A DNA stretch of 64,000 nucleotides from Marsupella aquatica (taxonomy: Eukaryota; Plantae; Marchantiophyta), in assembly GCA_973895155.1 (NCBI GenBank), contig OZ316894.1, positions 13,370,828 through 13,434,827 on the forward strand, given 5' to 3'. Every line of letters starts with the position of its first letter. Within the stretch, counting starts at the first letter, position 1. Shown here in pieces: positions 3,491 to 42,800 of the stretch. The position numbers were made by a program, and so were the translations under genes. Below the pieces are notes generated by a model. It did no database searches. It was not told the origin of the DNA and was given only the letters and a program-made list of their open reading frames with translations.

Positions 3491-15327
<11,837 letters not shown>

Positions 15328-17908
15328 CGTTTCGCCTTCCTTCAACCTACAGAGATCACACAGGTTAAACCAGAATGTAACCCTGTGATGAAAGTTCACG
15401 AATCACAAACTTTGACGTTACTGTTGCACTTCTCATACATCAGAAACAGTCTTCAGAAAGTGTAACAAAGAGAACCACAAGAAGCGAGGGGATTTGCATG
15501 TGAAAGTCGCTAATGCCCGAAGAGAACAACAGGGAGAACCACACACAGCGTATCGAGCTGACGCCAATTGTGAGTTCATCTAACGAGGCTCATGCCACCT
15601 TGTAGAGACAGTTGCAACATTAAAACATCAGGCATTCCTCGAGAACTCAACATTGTATGCCTAGCTGCAACATCTCGTCCCACTGAAGTGATTGACCATC
15701 AAACATTTATTATCAATGTCGCCTACAAACCTCCCTATACGAATAAAACTAAACGAGAAGATAAACGTCGATTACCTTTGCTCACCAAGCTCGTGGATGC
15801 ACAATAGTCGATGGTAACACAATTCAAAGCGGCCAAGATCAAGCTACACGATTCCCCCGTGAGCTCGCCCTGTCGCATTGTCCTATTTTGCTGGAGGGGC
15901 TCTCGAAGGATGTCCACCGGACAAACTAGGAAAATCGTCCACGCTCGTCACATGTGGAGTTTATCCAAAGGAACTCCGGCCACTGCACAAAAGTCACAAT
16001 TTCGCTCAGCAACTCAAAACAAATCTCAAACATGATATACTCAATCGCAATGGCAACGGAGCACGAGCAAAGCATTGTATTCGCGATCTCCTTATCTCGG
16101 CTTAGCCAGGAATTTTCTACAACCATCCCATAGCCCTTCCGAAGGAGGTCACGATCATGTATCGAGTGGCCCCTAACACAACGGAAGGTTCCTTCCAACA
16201 TTATTGTTGACCAACAGAAGTTTCCTCGCTATGCGTCAAGAAAACGCACGGACCCGAACAACATCGCTACCTTAACATGAGTACAGACAGGGCCACACAG
16301 GACTGTACAATAGGCTGGCTCGCTCTACAAAGAAACTCTTGTATGTCGAACAAGTCAGCATAACATTGAAGATGTAACCAGCTCGGAAAAGAACCTAGAA
16401 CTCGGGAAAAATTCAATACTACAATGTTATCAAAGCTAGATTACCCATGCTCGAGGGAACCACTTCTGTGCTGCACGTCAGGTAGTCAACCGAAGGAAAC
16501 AAAAAGACAGAAATTCTGTAGCAATGCAGCAGATCAAGTATGCGCTCACTATGCAATACAAATAACGAAAAGAACCTGAGAAATGCTAATTCGTGGACGC
16601 AGCGTATGTAGCAATCACAACTACAGTTCAAAAAGCAAATTCTGAATTCTGAAGTAATAGACTAAATTCAACACCACCGTCGTAAATCAAGACAAGCGCC
16701 ACAGCATCTGGATATCCGACTCCGTTTGAGTATCGATGTACCAAAGCTACACCTTACAGCAGCATTTGGTGATGCGAGGCTAGCGCAAGGCAATTCCGCG
16801 TCTGTAATTGCGGAACGGAAAATACAGGAAGGAACAGCACTCAGCTGCTCGAGCCAATTTGCGACCGAAACAACGACGCATTTTTTCTCTGCTACTAACA
16901 GTATAACCAATCAACCCTGTACCTCAGATTAACACTCCACCAACGCTAAAAGCTCCAAGTCACAGTCGAAGTTGGCGAACAGACCAATTTCGTAGAGAAC
17001 TGCTTATACTCAGTACTGAGGACAGGTCCCGGCTCTGAAGAAACATGATAGGTGAAAAGGGGGAAGGGAGTAAGCCAATCCGTTCTGTTCTCGATGACGC
17101 AAACGTGATTCACGATTCCGTCGGATGTTTGACGATCGACACCCAAACTTCTCGCATGCCAACCAATCTTGCTACAGAAGGACCAATCGCCCGATGAAAC
17201 TCGAGCAGTATATTTCAATCTCAGTCACTTAGCCAAGGCAGGAGTTTAGAGCACCACCTACCCAGTAATGATCGTGCCCGAAAGTTTAGTTGATTCCGTA
17301 ACTATCGACCAAAAACCGACAACACCTCAATTCACCAACAATCTCTTCTCTCCAGTTCTGTCCTGTGCACAACAGCGAAGCCCGTGTCCAAAACGAAAAG
17401 CGAAACTTGAGGAGTAACGAGACTCGTTTCCAATCCTTCCTCTGCGCCAATGCTACGGACCACGGAAGAAGGGTGGGCGTCAGAGGTACGAAACAATCCG
17501 AGAAAACATCACCAGAAGTCTACCCTTGCCAACGTCCAAGGGTAGCAAATCGAATAATGTAGTGATAAAAACTCTTTCAAATATCAACCGGGTCCCAAGG
17601 GAAATGAAAATGACCAGGCACACTAAGCGTGCTTGCTGCGTCTGCTGTGATTAGGAAGGTAGTAGTAGCCGACGCGCCCATCCGACTGCCAGGGGGTGAA
17701 AGCAGCATTCCGTAGTTGCAGAGCGTGTGGATGTAAGGAGTAGTGATGACGAGGGGAGGTACAGGGACTTCTGATGGGGTGGGTACGCAGCTAGCCAACC
17801 CGCCAATGGATATAAGCAGAAGAAGTAGATAAGTAAATTGTACCGACTGTGTCTCGGTCGTGCATTGGAGGGAATGCGGGTCCCACACCCCCACTTTTTC
17901 TTCCCGGC

Positions 17909-20100: not shown

Positions 20101-21991
20101 CTCAGTTCAGTAGAAGTGGTGCATGAGGCCGGATTTCAAACATTGGTATTGTGATAGTACAGTGTTGCTATTTTGTCAAGGTTGTTTCACAATTTTGTGA
20201 ATCACAGTTGAAATGTGGCAATTTGATTCTCTAAATTGCATTTTTGCGTTTGCCAAACTGTGATAATGGGATCCAGGGACGGTTAATGATATGGTATGTT
20301 CAATCACCGTGAACCAGGATGAGACAAACAATTGGGTGAATTATCACTGAACATCATGCATAACACACCCCTGCCGGTAGTCAAACATCAAAATGTGGAA
20401 ATGCACTACGAGCATTCATTGATTTATTGAAAATTATAATGACTATCATTGTATGGAATGATAATAATAGTACACCTGACAATTTAGACACCAGGAAGGC
20501 ACACCGGAAATAATAGTACAACATGCTTTTGCCTTCCCAACTTGCTCTACCCTGCTGGTAATTACACATGAAAATGTGGATTAATAAAGTGGATTAACAT
20601 TGTAATCAATGAGCACCAACTTTTGGCAATAGCAGCACGAGAATGTGAGTGTAATGGATAACTTGGTGCGCATGATACATGATCGGCGTCCTCTTGGAGA
20701 AATGGCCACGGATGTTTGCCTTGCTATGAGAGAGTATGGGGCATAGCACACTCAATGCTGCTGGCAAAGTTTTCTGTGAGCTGCATGTTGTGAGACTGTA
20801 TTTTATGGGCGCTGTTAATATGCAAGGGATGCCTCATCGATGGCTTTCAGACTCGCCCATTGTATCACTACAATGTTGAGGCCCTGAGGTCCTAGGCAAC
20901 GTGAAGACCTTCCAATAGAGCAAGACCATATTGTCTCCTCTCCTACAAGGTCCTCCGCCTTGCCAAGTTTGTGCCAGGCCGGAGTGTACGCAAGGTGTTG
21001 CAACTCCACCAGCAGAGGTTAGAGTTGCCAAATTATTACGTATTCCTCCATGTTGCTCGGTGAGTGCCAAGATTCCTACTTCCCCTCATGAGAAACTCAT
21101 CCTTCAAGCCAATATGCAAGCGGTGGGACTGGAATTCCTCTTTAACCTACCGTGGGACATAACTACTACATGGATCCCTATTCACGGATTTCATTGCTAG
21201 ATCCCGGCCATGAACTCACCAATATCAGGGCAATGGACAAGTGATGTAATTTCAAAGGCTTATCAGGTAGTGCTGATGGGGCGCCAATGTGTGATGGAAA
21301 TAGTGAGTTCAAACCATTTGTTGAGACCCAATTCACATCAGGTTGGGCCCGACCTCCATGACAGGAAACAGGAAATAGTGATGATCATAACAGGAAAAAT
21401 AGTTGAACAAAACAGGAGACTTGGTACTATCATTCACAAAAAACGGCTTAATTTTGGACCAAACCAAAGAGGTCAAATTCAACATAAACTCAAAAAGATG
21501 GGGAAAATGACAATTATCGGAAGACGCCTTTACTAGCGCTTAGTCCTAACCAAGCGTTTGATACCGTTACAAAATATCATTAACAAAATACCCGCTCACC
21601 ATCTACCGGAATGATCAGAGGATAATGGTTTATAAGGCAAGAAAAGGTCATCCTTGAGAATGCATGCGAAAGAAATCCACACGTTCAGACCTAGAAACTA
21701 CAAACTGCAACCAAGTAAGAAAATGGAGTCTAGCGCCGGGCGCTAACAAAACTGAAGGCCAAGTGACGATTTAATACAAACAAATCTCCGTTACCCGTAC
21801 AATGAAATTTACACATCCGTAAAATTGTAAAAACAAATTAAGTTTTATGTGCAACCCACAAAAGATTGAGCCATGTTGAAAAGAAACCAAATGTTGTTTA
21901 CTAGCGCCGGGCGCTAACCAAAACAAAGTTACCGTTACGAAACGACAAGTCCTACATACCCGTTGAACGTAAACTAGAATACTAAGCCTTA

Positions 21992-24900
21992 CTATAAACC
22001 ATCAGCATTTTGCCTCCCTAGAATATAACGCAGTTCCGCAATGGTAAGAATTGGTTGGCTTGGGAGGATATTGTCCACAAGATCAAGCTTGCAGATAACT
22101 TTGTAAACCCAGTACAAGTGTTTACATGGCATGAAAGGTTTCCCTCGAGAATGTCGACGAAAGAAATCTTCACAAGAGCAACAAGGGAAAATGCAAATTT
22201 GCACCCAGTAAGTATTTGCAGTTCATAAATGTGCATTTGTGCGTATCTGGAATCGATTCCCGTATGAATTTCCCGATGAAACTTCCATAGTTTTGATCAA
22301 AGTCATTGTTTCTTTCGTTGCTGATTCAATCCTTTTATGATATTCCTGAGTGAGATTTGATCTAGAGCTCATCGCACGCCGTTTCTCATTCGAAAACGGA
22401 TGTTAACTTGTGCAAGATCGATCTTTTCAGGAAAAACATCAATGTTGATTCTCAGTTCAAATGGAGAAGGACAACGTGAAACAACACCTCCTCTCGAGAC
22501 TTCAATGCCCTGCTCTTGAAGGAAATTTAACTCCAGACTTGAAAGATGAGTGCCTTTCTATACTGGCAAAAAGTCTGGGCAAGTAGGGAGGCTCACAATA
22601 CCTCGACAAGGGCGGCTCTTCCAGCAATCACGAGTGGGGCAGAACCAGACAAGCTCTGGATGGTGTTCACCTCTGAATAAGTTGTAACCTTTGACGACTA
22701 TTCCGACAACCCCTGCATTTGAAGGATATCCGACCTTCTTAATTTGATTATGACACTCATCTCGATCACAACTTCCAGACAACGTCCCATTACACTGTGG
22801 TCCAGCACCGTGTCTGGAAACTCTCCGCAGATGCCAAGACCCGGGTACAACGTCCACTTCAAAAAGCAAAGTGTCTACAGGAATGAATGGAGTGGTGTTC
22901 GGAGCACTTTTTGGAACTTCGGAAGATTGAGTGACATGATGGGAAACTGGAGAGCCACTTTCAGACAAATCGATAATTGGATTCGAAGGAGGAGTTCTAA
23001 GTGTCGGAATGTGCTCAAACTCGGATGAGTTCAAATTCTCCTCTTGCAACCTCGGGTGTTTGGTGTAGTTATGAGAACTGTGTCATGTCGATGGGAGTCT
23101 TGTGGAGAGACGTTCCCGGTTGCCGGACCTTTTCTTTTCATAGACTTTGTCACAAAATCCCCATTCAACGGAGAATCCCTCTCCAAATTAAATTCTGCTG
23201 CATTTGCGAGTAACATATTAGAGGCTTCTTCGAAGAGTTTCGGGGACCCTGCCTGGTCAGCCGAACGAAAAGTCAATTCAAACACTGTTGGACCAGTACC
23301 CCGATGGAGCCCTTCACGATATGCTATATAGGCTGCTATTTGTGAGATTGCTCTGTTGTGATCGGTCTTACATCCTTCGAACAAACCAACTGTTTTCTTT
23401 CCCTGCCATGCTTTCATGATTCCATGAACAGCTTCAGAACCAGAGCAATTGGGAATCATGAAAAGAGTTTTGTCAAATTCAGTACAATATATCGAATAAA
23501 AAATAAAGCGGAACTTCAAAATGGGCGGACGAAAGGTATGAATGTTTTTCATTATGATTGTGAAGATTGAAGACGCTATCAAGCTATTCGTACGTTAGCG
23601 CCCGGCGCTGGCAAAAAACATGAGTAAAGAGCACAATTAGAAAAGGGAGATTAATACTAGCGCCTGGCGCTAGTATACATTGACTCACCAAACGTATGAA
23701 ATTTCCCCACTGACGCCACCTCACAACCCACCAAGCGATCCATCCTTGCAACATTCTAAGTTTCCCAGGAATACAATTTCCAGATCTCCACCATGAATCA
23801 ATCTCTCGTGAAACCCTGTAGGCTTCCACAAATGAAGCGGCATTGCGCAACTTGTCCCAAAGGATTCGATGTTCAGCACGTTTTTCTTCAAGTACTCCTT
23901 CGATAGAGTGCCGATGCAAAGACTGATAAAAGTGGAATGCATCCGATCGCTCTCTCTCCGGGTTTGGATGGCCGTCAAAGAAGACATTCCTAACCGCTAT
24001 CCATCCTGCCTGAGCATTATCCGCCATGAAACCATGGATTTCCACACCCTTTAAACCGTTCTCCAAAGCGACTTCGATCATCAACCTCCAAGCTTTCTCA
24101 AGCAATGCAGTGTCCTCTGCTTTGAGTTCACAAGTAAATATTGTGCACAAAGCTTGATAGTTATGGTCATACACATGTGCACTAAAAGTACTCCATTCTT
24201 TGGACATCCTTTTCATCACGTCAAAGCTCACCCATGCTCCTTCTAGAGGCCCCCCTTTCTTCATCTGACGCAGTAAATCTACTCCCGATCCATGACCTTT
24301 GATAGTCATTTTGAAAATATGTGCTCTATCACCTTTACAGCCCTGCCCAGGAAGAAGATATCTTTAGAGAAAAGGAAACGTAACATTCTTCTGCATGTGA
24401 ACCAGATATTCCAAATCACCTCGACCAACCTGATCTTTACGAACGCTCTTAAATAACGCAGAAAACTTCTGAGGCCTTGAAACGAGCATAAGTGATTTCC
24501 AGATTTCTGATTCTTCTAGCTTTGAAATGTCATCCACAGACTCACCTATGGCATCCATTAAAGATCCAATGATCTCATTTTTCAAAACGCACGGTGTAGA
24601 AGAAGGATACTTCTCATGCTGTCTCTGTATTTCTTCTATTGCTATTTTCTCAGCACTTCTAGACCAGACCTTCCGACATGGATGGTTGTGCACCCCCATA
24701 TGGATTGCAAGTCGTGACATGTGTTTTGTAGTGTCATTTTCAATCAAAACTTGCGGGTACATATAAAACATTTTTGCTGGACAAGACTCAACACAAAATG
24801 GAACTTGAAGGCAATAGCGACAAACAATTCCTCCAGCATCGATCAACCTCCCAGGACAATGCTGACCAGAGAGCTTGGGGGTCCCATCCCATCCATTACA

Positions 24901-25719
24901 GTTTCTGACTTGAGTCCTGGTGTAAAACTCACATGCTCTATTTCGGCATTCGAGAGAACCACTACAGCTTACTTTCCCAAACTCCCACGTCTTCTTCGGA
25001 ACAACATTAGCAGAAGTAGGAAAGATTCTAGTTCAGAGGTAGCAGTCCTTGGATCGATCCATGTTTCGCAGACGATCCCCTTTCGAGCCAACACCTTGAA
25101 CAAGTGGAAGCTCAAATATGGTATTCCCATTGTACTCTATAGGTAAGCATTCAACCTGTTTGTGAATGAATGCCTCGGACCTAACAAAGCGCGATAACTC
25201 ACTTTGTCCAGTTGACTTCAACAAGGCATCAAGTGCGCTTCTTCTGTACACAACCAGAACAGGACGAGTTAGAGTGTCTCCATCATCAGACCCCTCCGAC
25301 GCAATCAATACGGGGGGTACCTGGGGCGTCAACAAACTGGTACTGCCGCCCTCCTTCTTGACCTCATCGCCCTTTGAGATTGGTGGAGAACCCTCAGAGC
25401 ATTCAGCATCGGACGTAAGGTCAATCACATCGTGAGCCACCTGAGGCCTCTCCACCTTGACCTGAATGATGTCCCTTAGTTGAATGAAAATCAAGTACTC
25501 CACGCCATATTCGAGATTCCAAACAACGTCCTCCGCTTCAGTATCAAAATGAGCGGGCCCATCGTTCAAAGTTCTGACACTCTAAATATGTTTTCTCGTC
25601 ACCCCAAATCTTCCACACAGGTAATTATCACTAACACATTTCCTATTTTCGGAAATTGACACAGGGATCATCACAACGTCACCTGTGTTCGGACACATTA
25701 TTCGAATAATGCGAGACAT
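21992..25719 (-). pseudogene. MULE-like DDE transposase with N-terminal Cys/His region and C-terminal SWIM zinc finger, disrupted
   Basis: Colinear ORF pieces: C..C/HNHP region (VCRYC...HMGVHNHP), putative D1 WVSFDVMKR, D2 FMADNAQA, (C/D)xxH-like SDAFHF, putative E in SGSEAVH, and SWIM CSCEDF...PCKHLYWV. Several in-frame stops and frameshifts. Confidence 0.7.
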
Positions 25720-27112
25720 TCTAACTCCCCAAAGATAACCGACTACATAACATAATGATACATGGTAAAATGAAGCTAGATTGTATGGTTGAGGGTTTCT
25801 TCTTAATCCAAGTCTCAAACGGAAAGAGCCGTCGAGCGGTTATAGGATCTGTTGGGTACGGATTTTCTTACCGTTCAAGAAACGACAAAACCATCAATTT
25901 GGCGGATAGTTATTGTTGAATTAATTGTTTTGAGGTTGTAACCGACGGGGTAATATAGTAGCGCCAGGCGCTAGCGTTTTCCACATCTCAAAGAGCCCAA
26001 AAATAAACAACAAAAGCAAAGATCAACGGCCATTTTGGTTACTGACACAGGTTAACATCCTACGATAGCTACTCATTATGACAACATTTAAGCTGAAATG
26101 TATCGGGTTTCCTTGGAAATAGCGTCTTATTTATGGCAGACGACAATATTACCCTCTTCTAATATTAAAATTGATCCATTTGAGCTCGCGTAGAAGTTAT
26201 CATAATACTAGCGCCAGGCGCTATCATAAAATTGATAAAAATATCAAGATCTAATGGTCATTATTTATTGAAACTCGCAGATTTTGGGTCCAAACATCTA
26301 AGCCATTTTGAAGTGTCTTGTTACTAGCGTCGGGCGCTATTATTGAAATCTACACATTTAAGCCCTATTTGAGACTCAAAGAAAAATAGCGCCTGGCACT
26401 TTCATAAAATTGATAGAAATAAAAGTTGTTTATTACAAAAAAAATCTCGCTTCAGTCCAATCATTCGCATGATTTTTTAGTACAATGTTACTAGCGTCAG
26501 GCGCTATTATTAAAATCCTTCATTTCAAGATATATTTTAGTCTAGCATTATAATAGCGCCAGGCGCTAATATTAGATCGAAGTAGAATATTGACATAAAC
26601 GGTCTTTTTAAACGGTAACTTTGACCGTTTATCGTTACAATTTAGAATGAATTCCTGGATAAATATATTCACGAGTACCTATAAACGAGTTAAAATGTGA
26701 CAAGTGTCAACCTTTAGTAGGTCTGCTTTTGGATGCTCGTGCTTTTCGATGTGTACTTGTCATACATGTCGGTCTGCCACAGGGTATATCAGAGAAGATC
26801 TTTTTGCGATAGTGTCTTCCTTGATCGTTAGAACGACCTCTGCGCCCATTTAGGGTCATCATCAATCATTCAATTCGTCCATATTAGTACAGCACCACAA
26901 GAAACGTTGCATCACGCGAGAAGCACGTTGCAGTGCGGGTTCCCCGTGTGTGTGCATCTTAAACAAACATGGAGAATCATTCTCCTGGCCATTCTGAAAC
27001 ATCCGAGTCCTCATTCTCCGGATCAGTTTATACTCGGAGAGTCACTCGTTCGTCTGCATCAAACTCTTTGTGAAACATTAGTCAGGCGATTCCAAAGTCA
27101 AAACGAGGCATC

Positions 27113-30100
27113 ATGGAGTCTTACGGAGATTTTGCGATGGAGGACGGGGGCGAGGGAGTTCTGTCCATGGATGCTGTGATCAAGAAATATGCAATGTTGT
27201 TTGGAGTTGATTTCAGAGGGGAGAAGAAAGAGCCGCCGCATATCCCTCTTTGTCGGCTTGTTCACATGGAAATCGTTCGGACTCTACAGAAAAATAGTGC
27301 ATCTATCGATAAGCTCAAGGATTTGTTTCGGAGCTTTGGGTACAACTCTTCAATTGGGATGCGGTTTTACGTTCAGCCCACGGATTCAGAAGGAGTCGTT
27401 CAATTCTGCACGCCTGAAATTTGGGAGACCTGGGATGCTGTTTGGGTTGCCCATAATGACTTGTTTGAAGCAAAATGTGCTACTGATCCAGATTTCCACA
27501 TTCTGAAGGATAAGATGTTCTGTGTTCTATGTTCTATGTCTGGGAATCATTGACTCTACTCGTGGACCCAAGTAACAAATGAGAATCCAAACAATATCAA
27601 GTACCATCTACGTGTTCAATGCACTGTTTTTAAGGGAGATCGAGGTTCTCTAGTTGAGCTTGAAGTGGCTATGCACACGGTGAACCAGTAAGTATTCCTC
27701 AAGTTGCATAAACGCTATTGAATTTGGTCGATTGCGCTTGATTTTTGCAAGGTTAGTTAGCGCCAGGCGCTAATATTTGCCATTATATCTTACAGGTTAG
27801 GGCAAGCTGTGGTGGAACCATTGTGGATTCTCGATGCCGATAGAATCAATCGGATTTTAACTCATGACTTGGAGGCCTACAAGCCGATCATCGACCCCGG
27901 CAGCTTCAAGCGATTCCAAACTGTTCGTGCCAAGACAAGAAAGGGGTCTTGGTATACCAAGCAGATGCCATTGGAAGCATTGGTTTACATCTTGTGTGAA
28001 AACAAGATTAAGTCGTATTCACTTCAATTTAAGCTTGACTTGGCTGCTGCAACAAGTGAAGGTCGCCCGTGGTCATCTGAAGAGACTGGTAAGCGGTATG
28101 CTACCATGATGAAGGAGGCAACGAAGGAGTAGAGCACAAAGACATCCAAGATTACCCCCCTTATAAGCCCAGAGTTTGGTGATTTTCTGTCAACTTGTGC
28201 AGAAATGTACATTCTTACGGAGAGGAACAAACGAGAAAAGAAGCCGGACTCTGTAGTTTGTACAATGGACCGCGCGCGTCTGTTCACTACTGTCTCCTAC
28301 TTGGATCCACAACTGCACTGTACTCTTCTTGTCGCTCACTGTACACCCAAGCTCAAAAAACAATTTTACCATCCCCCAAGTGTGAATGATGACCCTATTA
28401 AACAGTGGTGTCATACATGGCACATGTGGAGTTTGGTGGAAGGAATTGCAATTGCAATGTTATAGACATCTCTTTTGCAAGTCCAGTCGATCCTACCTGC
28501 TGATTGTCTAACGCTAGGAGGAGTGGAGACGTTTGAAGCTTTGGTCTTGAACATCACCAATGATTTCAAGACATACGGTGAAACAGTGAAGGCAAAGTTT
28601 TTTAGCACAATTTGGCAGTCCAAGTACGGAGACAAGGAAGACTATACAATTCGCAACCAGAAGCGAGCCAAGAGATATCTGTATCGCTTCTACATGGTGA
28701 TGGAGACCAGTTCTCCAGATTATTTTTGGGCTTACCCTCCTGCATTCCAGAAATGGTCCGTTCTAGAGGGGGATGCTTTTAGCGAAGTTTATTCAATGTA
28801 CCCTGCCAAAGGGGATGTTCCACCACGTGACATTTCATTGTGGGAGATAACCCACTGTCCATGGTATCTTGACACAGATTAGTGGGACACCCCTTTCGAT
28901 GAAGCTGAAAAGGATGCATTTCTGAAATTATCAAAGTCTTTAGTGCCTCAGAAAGTTCTCTCTGAAATGAAACAAGGTTTATCGGAAGATGTAGATGCCT
29001 CGGCAAGCGAGCTGTAGAAACATTGCGAAACAGAAGTTTTGCATGTAGACAGGAGTCAAAAACCCCGGGCGAAAGCAAAAGTAGACACTGGAGTAACCAG
29101 CCCATCAACGAGATCCGGGAAGAAACGTGAGATTCTTCTATTTTCCATTGGCACTATGTATTCTCTCTCCACCAGCTTGATTATGTCAGTGACTTTTGAT
29201 GAGCGCTGCAGATCAAGTTGTCTATTTATCAGTTAGCGCCCGACGCTGGTGTCCCTGATGAACAGACTCCTCCCAACACGGAGAAGATGGTGCGACCAGC
29301 AGATGCCACCAGCACGAAGAAAAAGAAAAAGAAATATTTGGATCATGGATTTTCCTCTCGGGATTCTATCGCTTCTACTGGTGTTCAACGAGATGTTGGA
29401 CAGTTCAAGTCTAAGACTTCTAGGCATGTTTTTGTTGAGTCCAGCGTAATGGACTTCTTTGAGAATGGTGTCAAATGTGGAGAAGTGGGTGAAAGACCTA
29501 GTCTTGCTTGGTCTAAGGGAGAAAGGAGTCATAAGAGGAGGAAAGATAAGATCATTTGGAGTTGATGTTGGATTCATTTACCTCCCAACTGGACTGCGCC
29601 CTTCCCTTTTAGAGAAGAAGTCTCCAAAATAGAATTCCCCAGATCACAAAATTGTTGGTTCATTCTTTCGCGCAATGGATCCCTTTCTAGCAGATGATGG
29701 TATATTGGCCATTTGGCATACCGGCGAGTATGATCAGATCTTGCAGGTCATCACCGCGAGCCAGGAGTTCAAAAGTTTCAGTGTGTGAAAACCCTGAACG
29801 TGGTTATGGGAGTTCCAATGTACATGGCCCGAAGTGATTGTCAGGTAAATTCTCTCACTCTTTGTGTTGTCCTTTGTTAGCGCCGAGCGCTAGCTAAAAA
29901 TGTTTTCATATACCCTTCGGTTAAGGGGATATTCTTTGTTAGCGCCTGGCGCTATCCAAAATTCATTGTTATGCCGCGATTGTAATGATTTTCTGGTTGG
30001 ATTGTCGGCATCTTAACAAAGGATTTTGTTGGGATTTCACAGGTTTTCACATTGAGATTGGATCTGTTCACTCGTGTTTCGTCAAAGGTTAAGGTTCCAA

Positions 30101-30621
30101 AGGACCCCAAGTTTTGACCCCTCTCTACAACTGAAGATCCTTCTATCACTAACCTTATTGGTCTCCCGAGTGTGAGGAAGGATCCAACTCCTTCAGCAGC
30201 GTTTGCTGGCAATGGACGCTTGTCCGTTGGGTTCATGCAATCTGTGTTAGAGTTAATCACTCGGCCAGATGATATTGTCATGGACTGGACTGTGGGTTCG
30301 GGAAGTACATTTGTTGCTGGTGACTATTGTGGTCATTTTATTCTTGGTATAGAAAACCGAAAAGAGTTTGTTGAGATTGCGGAAAAGACATGGATGGAGT
30401 TATTGATTCCAAAAGATGTCAGTTCCTCATCTCCCGCTAAAGATGTGGGAAGAAAACAAAAAGATAAAGTTTGCTCTGTCTTAAATTTTGACTCTGAAGA
30501 TGAAGAGGAGGGAGATGATGTTGGAGATGATGCTTCAAGAGGACAAGGAGAGGAAAATGAAGGAAACGAGAAGGAGAGGCATACGATGGAAGAAACAGAA
30601 GATTCAGATTCTTCTGAGTAA
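27113..30621 (+). pseudogene. Spliced, decayed gene: N-terminal ParB/Srx-like domain plus C-terminal beta-class N6A/N4C DNA methyltransferase-like domain
   Basis: N-terminus: HIPLCRL...IDKLKDLFRSFGY...KMF...SGNH(R>stop)LYSW. Introns at 27688-27795 and 29845-30042. Motif-IV region VDVGFIYLPTG (29561-29593) is followed by FFRAMDPFLADDGILAIW, and motif I/II region GRLSVGFMQSVLELITRPDDIVMDWTVGSGSTFVAG...ILGIE lies at 30214-30354. Motif IV precedes motif I, the beta-class order. Acidic tail follows. Confidence 0.62.
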
Positions 30622-31338
30622 TGCCCGTAAGCTACTTCACTTTACATTATGATTCTGGAACTGTCCCATTTTCATTTTCAATTCTAATGTGGTTCCGTTC
30701 CTCTTCCAGATCGGAGTGGAATCTTCAAGAACGTTTTGATCTTCGGAGGAAATACTCGAAAAAAGTTCTCGTTTCTCCTCAAAAGCCTTTCGTGTTGCCC
30801 TCGTATGCAGAATATGCTACACGCAAAGAAGAACAGAGGAGAACACTTACTTGGGAGAGTAAGGGCTTAAGGTTAAGGAGAGGTTCAGATAGGAAATTCA
30901 TCCATCAGCCTTTACTCAACGATGGACCTAAAGCGAATTTATAGATGATGAAGCTGAGTCTACCGATAGGTCTAGCAGTAGCAAGTCCGAGTCTTCTGAC
31001 TTGGAGTAGGTTGAGTGTGAATTTCTAAGGTTTTCTTTGGAACCTTGTACTAGCGCCCGACGCTATTAAACTGGATGTTTGGATCTGAGCCTTTAAAAGA
31101 GATAGACGCACCCGAAGTCTCTTTCCTGAGTGCATATTTGTGCAGATATCAGAAATGCATGTACTCGTATAGTTGTACGGTGAATAATTATACCTTCTGT
31201 ATGTACGTATTTTTGTTTGTGGTTGATATGATTGTTTGGACTCTCTCAAAGTGTAGTGTTTGTTCAACTTCAGGTTTGTTCAACTTTGTGTTTGTTCAAC
31301 CCCAAACGCATTTCTCCCTTTCATTTATGTGAGGCGCC

Positions 31339-31440
31339 GACTCACCTCTTCCCTTCGTTTCGTTTGTGCATTGCCCAGACTCACCTCATCCCTTTGTTTC
31401 ATTTCTGGTCTGCCCGAACTCACCTCTTCTCTTCTCCTTG
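31339..31440. repeat. Three ~39-bp-spaced copies of actcacctc(a/t)tc.ctt just upstream of an ORF
   Basis: gactcacctcttccctt, gactcacctcatccctt, aactcacctcttctctt. Confidence 0.7.
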
Positions 31441-31470
31441 AGTTTGGCATCCGTTGTTTCCATCGACTCC

Positions 31471-31917
31471 ATGGATAAGGGGAAGCAAATAGTGAAATTG
31501 GAGAGCCGCAATCCGCCAACGGCAATGGTTTGGAGGTCGATTAGAGATCCGGGTTTAGATTTGACTCCGTCTTTTACGCAATGCCCAGAGACGTCGACCG
31601 AGAGGAACAGGTTGTGGCTGGCCCCGGATGAGGGTATTAGCCACAAAACTGGACACCTTCCATCGCGTGATCCTTTGCCTCCACTTCCTTTCTGAGAGAG
31701 GTTCTCTGTTCACGACCCAGATCCTTCCAATGTGTATCGGGTGGAAAGGACAGCTTTTTTCAGAGACATCCAAGCAGACACCGGACGTGTGAGCTTTTCA
31801 GATTCGAACATCCCGAACGACCGGAGTCGGAGTCGCTATCCCGGACCTCTTTTTTTCTGGATCGAGAGGATGGGTTTCGACAGGATGAGGATAGGTCAAA
31901 GCTGGATTGGACGATGA
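31471..31917 (+). pseudogene. Small unknown ORF (MDKGKQIV...) inside the MULE-like element, with one internal TGA
   Basis: ATG at 31471. The frame continues past TGA 31693-31695 into the 31732-31917 ORF. Flanked by palindrome copies at 31051 and 31965. Confidence 0.35.
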
Positions 31918-33560
31918 CTGCATGTCTTCTACGTCCTAGAGAATGTGGATTCCTTCCTCGACACTAGCGCCTGGCGCTAGCTTTCATCTCATCGTTGGAG
32001 TCGTTCATGAGTTTGATTCATGTCATCTTTTTGAACGGGGGCTCCGGTTCGGCCGAGTTAGCTTTATTGCTCCTTCTATTTTATTATTGCATTAGGTTTT
32101 TTGAGTATGTTATTAGGGTTATTTCTTTTTCTCGAAGGTTATGGACTTTTATTACCTTCTGGATATCAATGTAATTTTTTTTTCAAGTAGTGTGTGTCGC
32201 TAGCGCCTGGCGCTACTAATATATGTTCTATTCTCCTCCACAATTATGTAAACCCGCCTCTGTAAAATTGTGTCTTTCAACTCTCTTTTTTCTAGTGTCG
32301 TCCAAATATGCTGCAAATACTATTAGTGGTTATTTTATTGTTGAAATTGGTTGTTTCTTGTTACTGGAATCTGGTTCCTGTCAGTTGGAAACCCTCTGAC
32401 AAAACAATCTTTAAGCTTGATCCGATGGATTTGGTCTTACCGAGCCAGCCAATTTTGAATGTCGGAGAACTCCAGTTCATCATAGGAAGGGAGAATCTGC
32501 ATGGTTTATAGGAATTTGGATCATTCGACGATACATTGAACGGACATTTTGTTAATGTTGTTTTGAACGGCAACAAACTCTTGGTTAGCGCTCGACGCTA
32601 GTAAAACTTGTCTTTCCATAATTGCTGTATAGAACTCTAAACATATTGGAGTTCCTATTGAAATTGGTCTCCTTTTTTGTCCGTAATTATGTCATCTTTT
32701 GTGTATGCTAGTACCAAATCTCCTGTTTTGTTCCTCTCTTTGTCCTGTTATGATTGTTACTATTTTTTGTTTCCTGTCACGGGGAAAAACCTCATCAGGT
32801 TGAAAGAGGAAGAATGGATGGCCAATTGAGCATTGTGAAGATACTAAACATTTGAAGCCCCTTTTGGAGTTCCTTATTCCAAACCTGCTCCACAAAGACC
32901 TACTAGAGTGACACTAGCGCTTGCCACTACCATTATAGTTTCATTGAAATGAAAGAGGAAGATCAATCCCAGAGCTTATAACACATTACCATTACCATTA
33001 CATTACCAATTTGGCAAAGATCCTAGGAGACATAGTTATGACGTTAGTTGAGAGGCTTGTACTAGGGCAAAATCCTATGTACATTGCTCCTTACGTAGCA
33101 CATTTGTATTGGAGTGAGGACTGACTCACTGCCATGAAGCAACAGGCTTTCCGGGGAGCATTTCCTTGGATTGCAATTCATTCTCCCAAGAGGAAAGTTG
33201 GGATTGAGGCCCACCTGACTGAATCACCATCTGCTGCTGAAAAGAGGTATTTGAGTTGTGACCATTCATCAACACACAAAAGGAGTTATCTGTCAATGTT
33301 AACTGTTGAACCTCCTGCAGGGATTTTGGATAATGCGCTCATTGATTGTGTAATGTCCATTTTAACTTTTGAGAGAAATGATATTTTGAGTGAGTTGGAT
33401 TGCTTGAAGTTGTGTTTCAACTTATTATGTGAGTGTGACATACATAACAAAGCATGCATCCCCTACGGCTGGTCAGTTGGCATACAAGGAGGCAAAGGAA
33501 AGTCGGTCAATTCTCAGTCCTATTAATAATTGTAGACCTACCAGTGTGAGCGTCACAGGT

Positions 33561-33909
33561 GTGAATCCTACTGATTTGGGTGAGTTGGAGCCTGTTGTAG
33601 ATGCGGATCCTGTGTCATCCCCACACATTGTGTAGTTGCATGAGCAACAAGGTTCTTTGGAGTTGGACACATGTGTCGAACAGGACACACCTATTGAATT
33701 GGATCTTATGGGACTGTTGTTACGCTTGACCCTATGCTTTGCTATGAATACCACAATTCCATGTAGTTCACCAATTGCCAGTCTCCAAAACTTTATAGTC
33801 CTTGTGGTGTTAGCCATACAAGAGTAGTCATACAAGACGTGAATCCTACTCATTTGGATGAGTTTGAGCCTGTTGTAGATGTAGATATCGTGTTCTCCCC
33901 ACACATTGT
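33561..33909. repeat. Imperfect 71-bp direct repeat (33561-33631, 33839-33909)
   Basis: gtgaatcctact.atttgg.tgagtt.gagcctgttgtagatg...ccccacacattgt. Confidence 0.85.
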
Positions 33910-33924
33910 ATGGCCAAATGAAAA

Positions 33925-34410
33925 AGTTTTTTTTTCAAAATTTTGGTTTTTTTTGTTTTTTTCCCCACTTTTTTTTGGTCCGTACGCCCCATCTCGGCGA
34001 GGCCAGCTGAGATAGGGAAAAAAATTTCAAATTTTTTTTTCGGGAAATTTTTTGGTCTTTTTTTTGTGGATTTTTTTTTGGTCCGTACGCCCATCTCGGC
34101 AAGGTCAGCCGAGATTGAATCAACCTCGGCTGCCCAGCTGAGATGAGCGGAAGTTCGAAGGCCCCATCTCAACTCCTCAGCTGAGATTCTAAAATTTTTG
34201 AGATAACTGATATCAGTTATCAACCACTGATAACTGATGATGTTATGTATCCCATGCAAATTGGATGGCTTGCTGATCTCCCTTAGATTGACCTCCATCC
34301 AATGGCACTGAATCTCCATCGAGGTTGAATTGAGATGTAAATGAGGGGAGGGGGCTCCACAATTATAGTGGGTAATTTTGAGATAGGGAATAGTGTTTAG
34401 GAAAACAGCC
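33925..34410. repeat. TIR/subterminal-like region of a DNA transposon: T-tracts, repeated ggtccgtacgccc(c)atctcggc and cagctgagat, and a 20-bp palindrome
   Basis: Two copies of ttttttggtccgtacgccc(c)atctcggc; perfect palindrome gataactgatatcagttatc at 34202-34221. Confidence 0.5.
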
Positions 34411-35422
34411 GCTGACATTTGTTGAAGGGCACTTTGTTCTAAACCTGTTACAAAGAAAGGTGCAGACTAATTTGTGTACTTTGACCATGATCTGTTGTTG
34501 GCACTATTTTCTGGAGTTACTCATATTGCGATAGCCTGGATCAAACTTCCTCCTTTGTCACAGAACATACCGAGTCCATGAAATGGATGAATCCCCCACA
34601 CCATGATTACAAATAACTTCATTGTACGTCATGGTGCAATTAGCCAAAAATACAAATGACAAACTGTTGACATAATGCTACATACCATGATTACACTAAA
34701 CATCTGACAAACAAAACCAGAATACTGGCACACTTTTCACGGAAGCACACAGGGTTTTGAACTGAATGAATATGGCCTTTTTTGTTTGTTTGATTGATTT
34801 GAAGTACGGAGACGCATTATTAGTATGAATGCGGTTTTTTGTGTTGTATTTCAAAGTACCTGGACATATAAACAATGGTCTTGTAACAATAATGCAATGC
34901 TTTTGGCCTCAAAGTTATCCGGGTCTGGTTTTCATTGCGCTACATAAGAATGAAGATTGAAAACATGAAGATTATTGTAGTACGTATGAATAGGCAAGTT
35001 CACATAGCTCTCAATCCAAATTGAGGGTGTGCTTATGAAGTAGATGGTTAATGTATGGCATTTTTTCACGGTCCTTATGGCATACTTTGTGTCAAACACC
35101 TAGTCCCACTTGTGGCCTTCTTTCATTTCTGGCCAACCAATGCCCCAGTCCGTTTGGTTTTTCCTTGGCAAAGAGAAGCAATATCAATAGCTTGCACTAT
35201 GCTTTTTAGAAAAGCTTCAGCCCTATGCTCCCATTGCATGGAACGGCGGTTCTCGCTAGCACTGACCACAACCTTATCATTTGAGGAATCTTTGGCAGCA
35301 ACTTTGAATGTAGTTGCCTAGGCGCTGGTTTCAATTTTGGGTTGTCCAAAACAAATTTGGTCACTTCTTGCACTTCAGACTCGAGGACACGAGCTGTAAA
35401 ATTATTATCATCATTAGAGAGA

Positions 35423-36254: not shown

Positions 36255-36565
36255 TTATGCGCTCTGCATAGTTAAGGATACCCGACAATTTACCTTATCT
36301 ACTTGTGCTGGAAGGTCTAACACTAAAGTTCTAGGCGAGTCGAATGCTCTTAGTGAGGGCAATCCGCTTTGACCTGCTTCATCTTTGATGTACCTTGCTA
36401 GAGTATACAAGATATATTCATTTTGAGTGGTCCATAATGCTCCAACCTTCTTCTCAAGCGGATCTAGGAACAACAACTCTTTTCCATCATGTAAATGGAC
36501 CACTGCCAACACCCAATGCTCCCTGTTTGCCCGGTGAATAGGGACTGATATCTTCCTTGGAAATG
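36255..36565 (-). pseudogene. Ulp1/C48 SUMO-protease-like fragment (TE-associated), truncated by LINE-A
   Basis: VPIHRANREHWVLAVVHL...FLDPL...PAQVDKVNC gives the H, D, Q, C catalytic pattern. The ORF's first ~15 aa come from the LINE-A 3' UTR/A-tail. Confidence 0.8.
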
Positions 36566-38131
36566 TTTTTTTCAATTTATTTAGATAATGACCACGAAAA
36601 CCCCGTGGCAAGGAAAAGCAGGAAGAATCTCACCACACCAATTCAGCAACCCCCAACCGGGAGGGCAAAGACAACAAGTGGTGAAGGCCCAATAGACCAG
36701 GCTGTCAACCCTATACTCGTGAACCACACATATCACCGAGCGAAAGCATAACTCACTAACTACATGCCCCAATGCTTAGCAGAGTTCTCAGCTAGATGTA
36801 ATCCAGATCTGTCGGCTGTTCAGCCAAACTATTCTTCCCGTATAAGTATCTCCTTCACTTGTAGCAATCTTGTGTGTCGCCTAGTTGGGGGCAAACACAG
36901 TCCCACCGCCAATGCATGGTCAGCCGCTTTTGAGAGAGTAAAACGAAGATCAAATGTCCTACAGCCATTGGACTGAAACATATGCACATTCCTACTCTGC
37001 CATAAGGACCAAATAATCTGATAGAAAATAAATAGCTTGGCAACTATGCTGTGGTCTTTCTTGGCTCAAGTAGCCTATCCGAGTAATCAGTAAAGGTACC
37101 TGAAAACAAGCTGCAACTAGTGACCACTTAACGTCGCTTGGCATGAGCACATTGCACAAAAAGATGGGAAATAGTTTCTACTTCTCCACTACACAGTTTA
37201 CAGTACCCCTTCTCCTTTATCAATGCGTCTGGCTCGCACACCAGTAAAGAGACCTGAAGCCAGTATCCTCCAAATAAACGTCTTAGCATGGGAGGACAGG
37301 TTAGAGTGCCACAATCCACTCCAACCTGCATTCCATTCACCTTTTGTCTCGTGCTATCCCAAGTATGATTCAGGCTTTTGTAGTCTCTAACAGGGGGGCG
37401 AATCAGCATGTACGCCCTCAGATTAGAGATCTTGAATATATTGATAGGATCATGCCTGTCAGCCCATCTCCAACAACGGGGACCAGTGACATAATTCATC
37501 CTGCAACCATCTATTGCACTGACCTTCCTTAAGAACTCCCTCCAACAAGCTTTCTCAAACAAAGTAAAGTCGCAAAGGTGTTCTAGTTGCTCATATAGAT
37601 TGCGCCATTCATTCCGTTTGGTAGACCATAAATCCTGGATGCCTCTAATACCCAGTCGGCCACACAACACAGTAACCACTTCAATTGGTATTGGGCCAAG
37701 ATTGGAAACCGATGAGAGAGCGGAGAGTGTCCATGGTATTCCACCTACCAGGCATCATATCACTGGGTGAAAAGATCAGGTGGGAACAAAGCTGAACCCA
37801 CGCTTTCCATAGTCCTCTAGTATATGCGATTCCATTAAAGGACCGAGGGCTACATAACAACATTTTATCCTGGAAGGAGTACTTATTCATGCGTATCCAC
37901 TTATAATTCATCCAACCCGCTAGTTTCAGATTTTCTGCAAAGAGACATGCCCATTCTGTATCCGGGCAATCCAAAGCCCTAGTGAACCATTTGGATAATA
38001 GAGTGTCGGAGTGGCTGCAAAAATCCTTTAGCCCGAGTCCCCCCTCCAGCCTAGGTCTGGCCATTCTAGCCCATGAAACAAGAGGGATTCTCTTGCCCCC
38101 TTCCGGAGTGTATCCCCACAAAAAGTCCCGG
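36566..38131 (-). mobile_element. LINE-A (L1-type) 3' part: ORF2 C-terminus, zf-RVT, 3' UTR and A-tail
   Basis: RDFLWG..GGKRIPLVSW..RPRLEGGLGLKDF, CKLCSGEVETISHLFVQC and IFYQIIWSLWQSRN to a stop at ~36829; aataaattgaaaaaaa tail. Homologous to 51190-52525. Confidence 0.88.
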
Positions 38132-39724
38132 TGTCGTCGGGGAAAATATTTGACAAATGAAGTGGAGTATGCTGGATCAGGTCGACTTGCTTTAAGTTCA
38201 GCTTGAGATGTATTAGTTATTTGGATGAGTAGTGAAAGAAACAAAACTGAGTTGAAGTTGAAAGGTAGTAAGACAAAAGAGGAATAAAAGAGCTATGGCT
38301 TTTAAAAAGCTTTTTGAGGGGAATTTTCTCCCGTTGACACGTGGTTGAATATGAGACTTTGAAGTTCATAAGGGCCATGAGGATGGAACGGTGATGCCTG
38401 CGATGGAGGTTTGGGTGAAAAGAAGAGAGAAATGGTCAAATGTGGGTGTGTGTCGTGGTGGTTATTGTTAGAAGACTTGGTCGATCTGTCAGGCGATGGG
38501 GGCAAAGTAGGTGGGATACTGAGGTTGGGGAAGGAATTCTGGAGGCGTATCGTGTATAGTTAGAGTGGAAGAAAGAAGGGAGACGACGAGCTTGGGCTGA
38601 GGAGTTATTTTGTTGTTATTATTATGGAGAAGATTGAAGTTTTTGAGTGAAGCGGAAACAATTGGCTGATGAAGGGCAGAAGAGACTGAAAACTTCTGGT
38701 GGCAAATAGAGTTGTTTGCGAGGCAGTTGCGGGAATGAATTTATTGAAGTTCAGGAGAGAAACAGCCAGATGTTTTCTTTTGAGGTGAGAAAAAATTGGA
38801 TCAAAGTCTGATAGAAAATGAGAATGGATCGTGAGAGGAATCGGGAAGTGTAGTGGAGAAGATTGCGTGTTGGAATACGGAGGACGATAGTACTATGAAG
38901 AATTGAAGAGGGTTACAAGAAAAGAGGAAAGGTAAATGAAATAGAGAACAAAAGGCAAAAATGAGGAATGGGAGGCTAAGGAGATCGATAAGGGAATTCT
39001 GAGGAATGCCCAAAAGGAGTTGAGAGCTATTAAAGAATGCTAGGGACGGACTGATGAGCTATCCACTGAATTAACGGAGCTGAATAAGTGTGCTGGCTGT
39101 ACTCGGGTCTGGAGGAGGGAAAGTTAGGATAGATTGATGGTTAAATAGGATGCTAAGTAGATTACTCCTTATTGAGGGAGTGCAACTATCGTGGTAAGAA
39201 GTGAAATCGAATTCAGTGTGGCTCGGAGAAGGAAGAAAATCTGGAACCTATTAGGGTTGGGAACGCAAGGAAAGAAGGGTGAAGAAGGAGGAAGATCCTT
39301 GTTTCCTCGGTAAACTTTACACTGGATTCTTGGTTTCCATAAGGCAAGTAAATTCAGAGTAGCAAGCGCATTAGGAGAAGAACTTGATTACACCCCGGAG
39401 TGTAATTGGTGATTAGAAGAAGCAAACACGACTGTAGCAGAAAAAGATTTCAAGTAAGCAATCGACCTGGGAGGACATCAGATCAGGCTGGTGGTGCAAA
39501 GACAAAGGGATTACTCATACAGGAAGAGAATTGGGTGGAGCAAGGATCGAGAAGGGCGGTGGAAGTGCCCTGGTGAGAGGTGGTGAAGAACGATTGAGCC
39601 TAGGGACTCGCTGACTTATGGAGATTACAAGATATAGTAAGCACATTACCCCTGTGGGTGGAAGGCGATCACAGTGATCGATAGTAGACTTACCAAAAAG
39701 TGTCGCACAAAGGACATACTTAAG

Positions 39725-39841
39725 CCCCATCTCATCCAATCGCCCCAAGGAATCCCCATCTCATCCAATCGCCCCAAGGAATCCCCAGTGCGACATTGGC
39801 GACCATACTGGGGATTCCTTGGGGCGATTGGATGAGATGGG
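39725..39841. repeat. 29-bp tandem duplication plus perfect 35-bp inverted repeat (39755-39789 / 39807-39841) around the Ty3 PBS
   Basis: cccatctcatccaatcgccccaaggaatccccagt, a 17-nt loop, then actggggattccttggggcgattggatgagatggg. Confidence 0.95.
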
Positions 39842-42800
39842 TGACTATGATGAAGTTGATCGGATCTCAAGCATCGTCATGTTGATGATGAGAACCATAA
39901 GGAAGGAAGAGCTTGAGGCGGAAAGGGCGAACAGGGAAGCGAATAGAACTACTCGGTGTCTCCAAGAGGTTCTGAAGGAGAATGGGCAGTTCAATGGGAG
40001 AAATGTGACAAGCTACCTTAAGTCTTACTTGACAAAAGGAGCTGTCTACAAGTTGGACGAAGGGACGGCGGTGAAAGAGTTCATGGTGCTGGTTGAGAAG
40101 GAGTTGAGTTCGACGGTGTGGACCATCGTTGAGTCAGCTAAGGGCTGGGATGACTTCGACCATAAGATGAAAGAGGAGTTCCAAGCAAAGGATGCTGATC
40201 GGGTCACGCAGGCTACCTTCTTGGATTGGGTGAATGATAGGAACAAGAAGCTGAAGGGGCCGCAAGAGCTCCTAAGGGAGTTCAAGAGAAAGGTGTCTCG
40301 GTTATCGAAGCGGGATGTGGGAATCATCAAGTTGCAGCGCTCGACGCTCTTCTTGAGGGCAGCCGATGAGGACCTTCGAGAGGAGCTTGAGAATGCGATG
40401 GAGTTGCTGGAACCTTCGAGAGTTACCTTGTCTAACGACTGGAACCAAATTGAGAAAGCGGTGTCAAAAGTGAGCAATTGACACCGGCGGCAAGAGCTAG
40501 ACAAGGAGGCTACCACTCTCGACCTAAGGCCGCCGGAACTGACATTGAGGAAAGGGAAGCGAGAACCAGCGAAGGATGAGATCAAACCATCGATGGATGA
40601 TCTCGCGGAAATGATGCAGAACTTGAAGATCTTGGTGGCACATGCAGTCGAGAATCCAAAACCAAGGGTTGCGAGTGCTCCCAAGCGGAAGCGAGAGTTG
40701 CAGAGTTGGCCATGCATATGATGCAACAACAAAGAGCATGACAAACGGGAGTTCCTGGACCTAAGGGAAGCTGCGGATAAAGGGCTGATCAAGTTCATTG
40801 GTGAAGTTGGTCAGAAAAAGATATTGTTTGCCGATACTGAGGAGCCGATTCCATTCAACTCCAACAAGGGAGGCATGAAGGCTTTGGCTGAGAAGCGAGC
40901 TGGGAAGCGAGTCAAAGAGGCTTCCTCTTTGCACCTGGAAGCGAATGTTTACAATGTGGAGTTGGATGGCCCCGTGATGGAAACAGACAAGTTTTACAAG
41001 CGCTTGGCGGATCTGGTGCAAGAGAGATCCGGATGGAGTGACCCGGTGCTGATCAATGCGATAACAATTGAGGTTGGGGCTAGTTGGGATGCCTCGGTCA
41101 AGTCAAAAAGGAAGAAAACCGACAAGGATGACACTTCGTCTCAATCAGGGGAACGAGAGAGGTGGGATACTAAGACAAGGAAAGAAGGGTTAGGTTCAAA
41201 GAAGAGGAAATGAGCGAGAAAGAGCCAGAGAAAGGGAAACCGATCAGGAAGGACCCGGGCTGGGTGCTTGGCAGGGATGTTGACCAGGCCATGTACCCGG
41301 AGGTTGTAGCTGAGAAGTTCTGGAGCCAACGGGCTCAAGGGTTTACCAATGCTGAGTTCTTTGGCAGGATGAGGCGGGAGATCCAGGAAGCGATCTTGGA
41401 GAGATCCAAGAGGAAACGGATTTACAAAGAGGGCCCTCACACCTTGATGGGGGAGGCTGGCAAGACGGAAATTGGGAGTTTCTGAACTTACACTGCTGGG
41501 GCATCCATGGGTCCAGGTAGCAAGCTTGCTGGCCCCGAAGAGTCAGACTTGGGGAAACCAAAGAGGGTCAAGTCCCTTGGAGGGGAGCTGATGGACGATG
41601 AGTTCTTTGATGCGGAAGAGGAGCTCATGGACTTGAACGATGAGTTCTTCGATGCGGAAGAGGAGCTCATGGGAACCGGAAGCGAAGCTGAGTCTGTGGC
41701 AAACAGGGACCCGACTGAAGGGAAAGAGCAAGAAGGCATTACCGCACAATCGAGGACCATTCATGTCATGCAATGAAAGGAAACGATTATGCTTACCGAG
41801 ATGGATATTGGGCTTGAGCAAGTCCGGAGAGCGAGTGCCAGTTAGAAGGAATGGAAGGCAAGGTGCGGGCACTCATTGATACTGGCTTGGAGATCAACTT
41901 GATGGATCCAAAGGTGTTTCAAAAGGGGAATTGGCCGGTGGATAATGAGTTGCTTTGGAGTGTGAACTCAGTGAGTTTGATGAAGGACTATCTTTGGGGC
42001 GGATGTCCGAATGTGATGGTGAAGTTCGGGAATGTCAAGCAGGCTTGTAACATTTTTGTTCATGAGCACTTGTCGTTTCCAGTGATACTAGGCATGTCGT
42101 TCATCACTGAATGGAGGATGGAGACGAAGGTTCTGGACGATACTACCTTCATGGTGAAGGTTCGGAGCAAAGATGGGAAAGAGGTGGTTCAATTTCCAGC
42201 TATTTTACTTGGAAACGAGAGGAATAGGAAAGGGTTGAGGACTCAGAGTGCTGACTCTGGTCCAGGTCCGGAAAACAACTTGGCACTTTGCTGAAAAGAG
42301 TGGATCGGTGGAGTGCTTGTTCCTTAGCTCCTTGTGAAGGGGAAAACACGATGGATAATGGAGAGGATGAGCCACTCAAATGTGCGGAGTCTAACTTGGG
42401 AAGGGACAAGCTGGAGAAGGAATTGGAAAGGCAGTACTCGTCTATGGTCGTGCTTGTATACTTGAGTACCAAATACAAGATGGTCGACAAGAAGGTGAGG
42501 CCGGCGGCGATACCTTTGCCGGACGATGCGATGGAGGTTATAGATCGAGCGAGATTGGAACCTAGGCTGAGGCCAACTGATCGGATAGGGCATAAGTTTA
42601 CTCAAGAGAGTTTGGCAAAGCTTAAGATTGGTTCGGATGGGTTACTTACGGAGGTGGAGCAAGTGGCATTTCAAAAGATGATAATGGAGCATGGCAAGGC
42701 ATTCTCGTTTTTGATTGAGGAGATTGGTTGTGCGGATCCGAGATGGTCATCTTTACTGTCCCTCATGTTCCGTGGGATCTGAAACCGATTTCGGTTCCAC

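Follow-up and report, generated by a model that had tools for sequence, protein, structure and literature searches.

In Arabidopsis, the protein VANC21 binds a short motif found in introns and in intergenic and terminal regions of the element VANDAL21, and related VANDAL families have other motifs, arranged in tandem arrays (PMC5735166). The Ectocarpus transposon Sola1-1_Ec32 carries, opposite its transposase, a gene for a 1104-aa ParB-like/N4-N6-methyltransferase (PMC12477816), and inverted-repeat arrays flank the ParB-domain genes of red-algal Plavaka elements, whose accessory genes have reported homologs in Mutator elements of Chondrus (bioRxiv 2025.02.11.637652). In phages, the ParB fold, with its GxxR motif, is frequently joined to an N6_N4 methyltransferase in one protein (PMC12704722). 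Accessory genes of the ParB-methyltransferase kind, and arrays of inverted repeats close to such genes, are thus already on record for algal transposons, and a system of this kind has been proposed there. Here we describe a land-plant Mutator version, contained in 64,000 nt from the liverwort Marsupella aquatica (contig OZ316894.1, positions 13,370,828–13,434,827; this whole stretch is the window, and coordinates count from its first letter). It consists of a decayed transposon with 18 copies of a 15-base palindrome, which with moderate confidence we consider likely binding sites of an accessory protein encoded by the same element. As far as our literature searches show, what is new is the occurrence in a land-plant Mutator element, the definition of a candidate site, the departure from the canonical catalytic motif and an indication that the site may turn over.

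Allowing up to two mismatches, the palindrome occurs 18 times in the window (10 perfect copies, five with one mismatch and three with two), so that the ten perfect and eight near-perfect copies of the original prediction were all recovered. Shuffled versions of the window contained a mean of 0.03 matches, and none of 100 shuffles reached 18. All the copies lie between 21731 and 32600, within a single transposon copy, and there are none at this threshold in the 52.5 kb of the window beyond it; the palindrome is a real, non-random cis-element of the transposon. The original prediction had not mentioned their common location in a transposon bearing its own ParB-like/methyltransferase-fold gene. 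A look-alike with three mismatches (32915–32929) is located outside the transposon, just past its right target-site duplication and beside a repeat (32935–33609).

Sequence variation among the copies was not evenly distributed: the arm bases AGCG were changed in 1 of 144 cases versus 7 of 72 for the inner CC (p = 0.002), and the arm adenine was unchanged in all 36 half-sites. Both TAGCG arms are kept in 15 of the 18 copies, and CCNGG is broken in six of the 18 spacers; likewise, the window has 15 instances of TAGCG-N5-CGCTA, and the two arms were never found at another spacer length between 0 and 11. The flanks are AT-rich and biased, with a purine at −2 in 35 of 36 half-sites and A/T at −4 in 34 of 36, giving the consensus W-T-R-Y on either side. 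The conserved part of the site is the arms (TAGCG-N5-CGCTA) plus the AT-rich flanks, rather than the CCNGG core, and these counts weaken the earlier suggestion of CCNGG as a methyltransferase target. The mismatches are mostly C>T or G>A (8 of 11), as had been noted. The centre base, described as free, is indeed A in five copies, T in five, G in four and C in four; however, in a palindrome A and T, and likewise G and C, are interchangeable by orientation, which leaves the centre with two states only (A/T or G/C), and the A/T centre could be a deamination product of the G/C centre. CpG retention is not shown statistically: changes affected 1 of 72 fixed CpG cytosines, compared with 1 of 14 (p = 0.30) or 2 of 15 (p = 0.08) CGA codons, in a comparison where the copies had been chosen for few mismatches. 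Similarly, 10 of the 18 copies are perfect, but the decay of the CGA and TGG codons with which they had been contrasted is mild (eight stops in 1381 codons, with 13 CGA and 35 TGG codons intact). The outer C of CCGG was changed in 6 of 16 chances, more often than the fixed CpG (1 of 72); because a single spacer variant is present three times, these changes are not counted as independent events. We found no CCG depletion elsewhere in the transposon, and 29 of the 40 listed among 2101 contig variant rows were of C>T type (13 in CG, six in CHG and 10 in CHH contexts), which are too few for a rate.

The transposon (21346–32792; 11,447 bp) is a decayed Mutator-type DNA element whose boundaries are established by a 10-bp target-site duplication (CATCAGGTTG at 21336–21345, identical at 32793–32802) and by imperfect terminal inverted repeats (21346–21616, + strand, and 32519–32792, − strand). 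These ends, of about 270 bp, are 74% identical over 269 columns, or in 198 of 286 columns of a second alignment, and their terminal 10 bp are mismatched; the left one contains a decayed look-alike of the palindrome (21534, four mismatches), which is in register with the copy at 32586 in the right one. Contigs from four public runs (two studies) are identical to the single-copy flanks as far as 21373 and again from 32763/32764, and in all four runs the contig depth inside the transposon is far above that of most flank bins, with many divergent variants. The copy in the window is therefore one member of a diverged multi-copy family. A target-site duplication of 8–11 bp is typical of Mutator-like elements (MULEs; PMC6446971), and the length of 10 bp found here, the long inverted ends and the transposase evidence presented below make Mutator-type the best call.

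The element contains a transposase pseudogene (22500–25719, − strand) and a divergent accessory gene. Two perfect palindromes are left subterminal (21731 and 21902; 21731–21916), and a doublet with 62-bp spacing (23596–23672) lies in the inferred transposase intron, with its donor at 23688. Six copies are clustered between the divergent genes (25959, 26209, 26325, 26387, 26492 and 26554; 25959–26568), where two further 62-bp doublets occur. A perfect copy (27758–27772) is in intron 1 of the accessory gene (27688–27795), a two-mismatch copy (29234–29248) touches the predicted edge of intron 2 and exon 3, and another 62-bp doublet (29878–29954) is in intron 3 (29845–30042). The remaining copies are located downstream of the accessory gene (31051–31065), in the read-through end of a third open reading frame (ORF; copy at 31965) and in right subterminal and terminal positions (32201 and 32586; 32201–32600). 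The sites therefore occupy the termini, the space between the genes and introns of both genes, and the intronic copies named earlier (23596/23658, 27758 and 29878/29940) all fall in inferred introns. Under this inferred exon model, which covers 61% of the transposon, 16 of the 18 palindromes are wholly non-coding (p = 2e-5 for coding avoidance). Together with the uneven conservation and the constrained flanks, this predicted avoidance supports the notion of a dimer-type site in non-coding DNA. Most sites are also distant from the transposon ends: 14 of 18 are over 600 bp away, and for 13 of the 18 the distance exceeds 1.7 kb. The 62-bp gap, about six helical turns, is seen four times, which did not occur in any of 20,000 random placements (p = 0.0017 for three times). 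Helical phasing is weak over all nine gaps shorter than 300 bp (R about 0.55 at 10.4 bp), and only the 62-bp repeat holds; a search for the doublet pattern in viral contigs gave no matches.

The accessory gene is on the + strand. Exon 1 (27113–27687), delimited by alignment to relatives and broken by a stop, encodes a putative ParB-like N-domain with xGNHR and AMHxxN motifs; exon 2 (27796–29126) encodes a helical middle domain that matches no known family and is 47% identical to the homolog P0001; exons 3–4 (29237–30617) encode a beta-class amino-methyltransferase fold and are frameshifted; and a possible last exon, also frameshifted, may occupy 30710–31009. P0001 is the single close homolog and has in turn 108 relatives among the representatives; in the 10 that were looked up, the named relatives are all from liverworts (eight from Riccia sorocarpa and one from Calypogeia fissa). 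A full-length relative, P0119 (1207 aa), aligned with exons 1–2 and 4. The DGNHR motif, corresponding to the GxxR P-motif, is present in 12 of the 14 relatives spanning the N-domain; in the window copy a stop replaces the Arg codon of GxxR. The Atlas neighbours of residues 150–345 of P0119 are DUF3723-bearing clusters from fungi and an unnamed cnidarian family (0.96), and a ParB_N cluster with PF02195 in 32% of its members appears at rank 27 of 30 (0.92). From this motif and language-model evidence we infer a ParB-like N-domain. The DUF3723 and cnidarian neighbours suggest a ParB-like domain shared by mobile-element cargo. DUF3723 is a conserved cargo gene of unknown function in Starship elements (PMC9156397). 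A tblastn search for the N-domain relative P0059 in phages retrieved nothing. For the middle domain, a confident model of the relative P0121 gave no fold match, and Atlas reached only 0.82.

The methyltransferase fold of the C-terminal part is established by matches to PF01555 (E = 3e-7), DpnA (E = 1e-5), CcrM and MboIIA, and by hhalign (E = 6e-5); the permuted motif order and the retained S-adenosylmethionine (SAM)-binding motif place it in the beta class. Its catalytic motif is altered. At the catalytic position, assigned by alignment and resemblance, six of eight relatives have D[LM]P[TS] (two of them being 95% identical), one has HLPS and one SVGT, and the window copy has YLPT. The accessory protein thus lacks the canonical [DNSH]PP[YFW], a DPPY-type motif that defines the beta-class clade (PMC4738411), and [DSN]PP[YFW] was not found in the stored relatives P0009–P0122, most of which are fragments. 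In the rotifer enzyme N4CMT, changing SPPY to APPA abolished activity (PMC8885841). Since the aromatic catalytic residue is missing, this part of the protein probably binds DNA or SAM instead of acting as a standard N4-cytosine/N6-adenine (N4C/N6A) writer.

The reading that we favour with moderate confidence is that the palindromes are binding sites of this predicted ParB-like/methyltransferase-fold fusion and serve the anti-silencing of the element; the Ectocarpus Sola gene, the Plavaka arrays, the phage ParB-methyltransferase fusions and the placement of VANC21 sites offer precedents for it. The accessory protein, rather than the transposase, would bind the palindromes as a dimer, their half-sites being separated by about one helical turn, and paired dimers could occupy the 62-bp doublets. 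After loading at the palindromes, the protein might spread along the transposon and, once bound, shield it from host silencing in a manner similar to VANDAL/VANC, helping the transposon to recognise and protect its own copies.

Several results weigh against this assignment. Pfam scans of the accessory protein did not recover ParB, PF01555 being the sole domain; PHROGs gave one weak ParB match (E = 0.34) and, in a second search, none; a profile-profile comparison (hhalign) against a narrow phage ParB-N set scored 12.7, compared with a shuffled mean of 12.3, and was at control level in global mode; a fold search of the low-confidence model of the protein found no ParB match; and a helix-turn-helix for DNA binding was not identified in the middle domain. 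As to the sites, the two intergenic 62-bp doublets derive from one local duplication (28 of 47 spacer positions identical), with dissimilar spacers in the other doublets, and joints in other contigs of the family imply, by arithmetic on the contig table, spacings of 51 and 66 bp, so the doublet spacing is not fixed. Additionally, one pair of sites is within the inverted ends, where sites for the transposase would be expected. Finally, motif turnover, considered below, depends on one related locus, where the transposase gene was not seen and whose repeat array may be an unrelated minisatellite.

The main rival, which is possible although rather unlikely, is that the transposase or a splice product of its gene binds the palindromes for end recognition and self-activation, as with the AtMu1 transposase and the CACTA protein TnpA. 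The pseudogene is probably of the Mutator/IS256-like DDE type, with approximate limits for its C-terminal exon, and its frame has seven homologs with 44–67% identity; the DVM, DN (two aspartates) and D-x-x-H motifs are kept in six of the seven, those that span them. No Pfam MULE domain was found in the frame; the top Foldseek matches of a low-confidence model, ISCth4 and Hermes, were non-significant (E about 0.01), and a VIA fold search of the model was uninformative. Conserved Cys/His residues suggest a zinc-binding DNA-binding domain, which we take to be GCM/WRKY-like and which would favour binding by the transposase. The first ~85 residues of the transposase homolog P0002 (25586–25719 in the window, − strand) were modelled as a ubiquitin-like fold, with a VIA match to DWNN (Z 7.6, root-mean-square deviation 3.2, 78 aligned) that is within the range of common matches. 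The in-register pair 21534/32586 in the inverted ends, and three more sites within 600 bp of an end, also agree with this rival, and the AtMu1 transposase alone is reported to bind its cognate termini and activate copies. However, that binding peaks at the termini (bioRxiv 2026.08.24.746577), whereas most of the sites are more than 1.7 kb from an end, and decay is greatest in the left terminal copy.

It is improbable that the sites have no function for the transposon and instead represent traces of very small insertions flanked by TA, a micro-repeat that was copied locally or targets of a host factor. The pattern WTRY-TA-[11 bp]-TA-RYAW could be read as an insertion with TA duplication in a palindromic target, and local copying is suggested by the threefold spacer variant and accounts for part of the intergenic cluster; nevertheless, an 11-bp mobile unit is implausible, and the lack of copies within two mismatches outside the element, the coding avoidance, the arm-specific conservation and the recurrence of the spacing across dissimilar spacers all argue against this explanation. 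About equally improbable is an accessory protein that works as an atypical but active amino-methyltransferase, placing an N4C or N6A self mark at or next to the palindrome (on CCNGG or the TAGCG adenine), given that the beta-class fold with its SAM-binding motif, the constraint evident in D[LM]P[TS] and the invariant arm adenine are countered by the lack of the clade-defining motif (PMC4738411) in P0009–P0122, by the inactive rotifer APPA mutant (PMC8885841) and by the broken CCNGG spacers.

A relative of the accessory gene was found at a single metagenome locus (L001), with intron 1 at the same position as in the window gene and a DGNHR exon. The window palindrome is absent from this locus, and its intron contains instead 11 copies of AAGCCYNNRGGCTT with a period of roughly 20 bp (0.04 expected, for a pattern derived from L001 itself); AAGCCYNNRGGCTT has two matches in the window, which is chance level. 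This array hints at what family-specific site turnover would look like. We regard as unlikely a more elaborate version of binding by the accessory protein, in which liverwort Mutator elements would have a eukaryotic parS/ParB system: a nucleoside triphosphate-gated ParB-type clamp would load at family-specific palindromes and spread, its rewired methyltransferase fold would block or overwrite host cytosine methylation, and site and protein would co-evolve between families. In this version, the fungal DUF3723 protein may carry the N-domain as well.

The element offers a sharply defined candidate site of known conservation profile, liverwort relatives of nearly full protein length and another family whose palindrome is different, so a single binding assay plus an exchange of specificities could test the hypothesis. 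Should this be correct, it would be an independent answer to the problem solved by VANC, made from bacterial parts, and if DUF3723 shares the N-domain, it would provide a function for an unexplained Starship gene. No literature on this element or motif in liverworts was found by title and abstract start; repeat sequences in the Plavaka supplement may bear on novelty.

Besides the two genes, the transposon contains a third, broken ORF of no known family (31471–31980, + strand), which is covered by divergent family contigs and had no match in a Pfam scan. Elsewhere in the window, a host gene with PAS/LOV and protein-kinase exons (3800–15400, − strand) is presumably phototropin-like, and an Ulp1-like fragment, a long terminal repeat (LTR) retroelement pol, a long interspersed nuclear element (LINE)-like reverse transcriptase and a GAGA-binding-family gene are found among 36255–36629, 39678–45638, 46954–52525, 54933–55677 and 61206–61724. 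One ORF of that set, which had no Pfam match, resembles a piece of En/Spm transposase. The PAS/kinase exons (4–15 kb), the LTR and LINE reverse transcriptases and the GAGA-binding gene indicate that the window is plant DNA. Perfect inverted repeats of 33–35 bp occur in the gag-like ORF of the LTR element (39726–39841), the repeat at 32935–33609 has high depth in three of the four runs, and another high-depth repeat (33919–34452) has its own nested palindromes (ATCTCGGC...GCCGAGAT, GATAACTGATATCAGTTATC).

Compared with known systems, the liverwort element shares with bacterial ParB/parS and the phage fusions (e.g., L003) a GxxR-type motif, the same predicted pair of domains and a palindromic candidate site. 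It differs in the large extra helical domain, the insert in the N-domain, the non-canonical catalytic motif and the spliced gene of its protein; no ParA gene was seen in the element, and the profile similarity of the N-domain is non-significant. Bacterial-type beta-class amino-methyltransferases are found in eukaryotes also as rotifer N4CMT and, in a liverwort, as MpDN4MT1 of Marchantia, with an SPPY motif and demonstrated activity (bioRxiv 2021.02.12.428880), but both are described as active host enzymes with SPPY, whereas the protein reported here is carried by a transposon and has D[LM]P[TS] in its family. Plavaka elements likewise have a ParB-domain accessory gene with adjacent inverted-repeat arrays; in their description, however, ParB and methylase are separate, with SET and 2-oxoglutarate (2OG) oxygenase partners (PAG2, N6-methyltransferase plus SET; PAG3, ParB plus 2OG oxygenase), and the repeats adjoin PAG3, while in the liverwort element ParB-like and methyltransferase parts are fused and the sites occur throughout. 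Sola1-1_Ec32, likened here by its domain description, belongs to another superfamily (Sola), to a brown alga and has a 4-bp target-site duplication, and no binding site was found in its description; as in our element, a protein of about 1100 aa with ParB-like and amino-methyltransferase parts is encoded on the strand opposite the transposase, and it is proposed to bind and modify its own element. From VANDAL/VANC, the liverwort system differs in that the VANC motifs given for Arabidopsis, YAGTATTAY and AGTTGTMC, are not spaced palindromes of this kind, and in the prokaryote-type domains of its accessory protein, for which anti-silencing is suggested by analogy; Pfam scans turned up no VANC homology (PF01555 only), and no VANC sequence was compared. 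Both are nonetheless Mutator-type elements with an accessory gene and a family-specific short motif in intronic, intergenic and terminal DNA, and both have a related element with a different motif in a tandem array, here L001.

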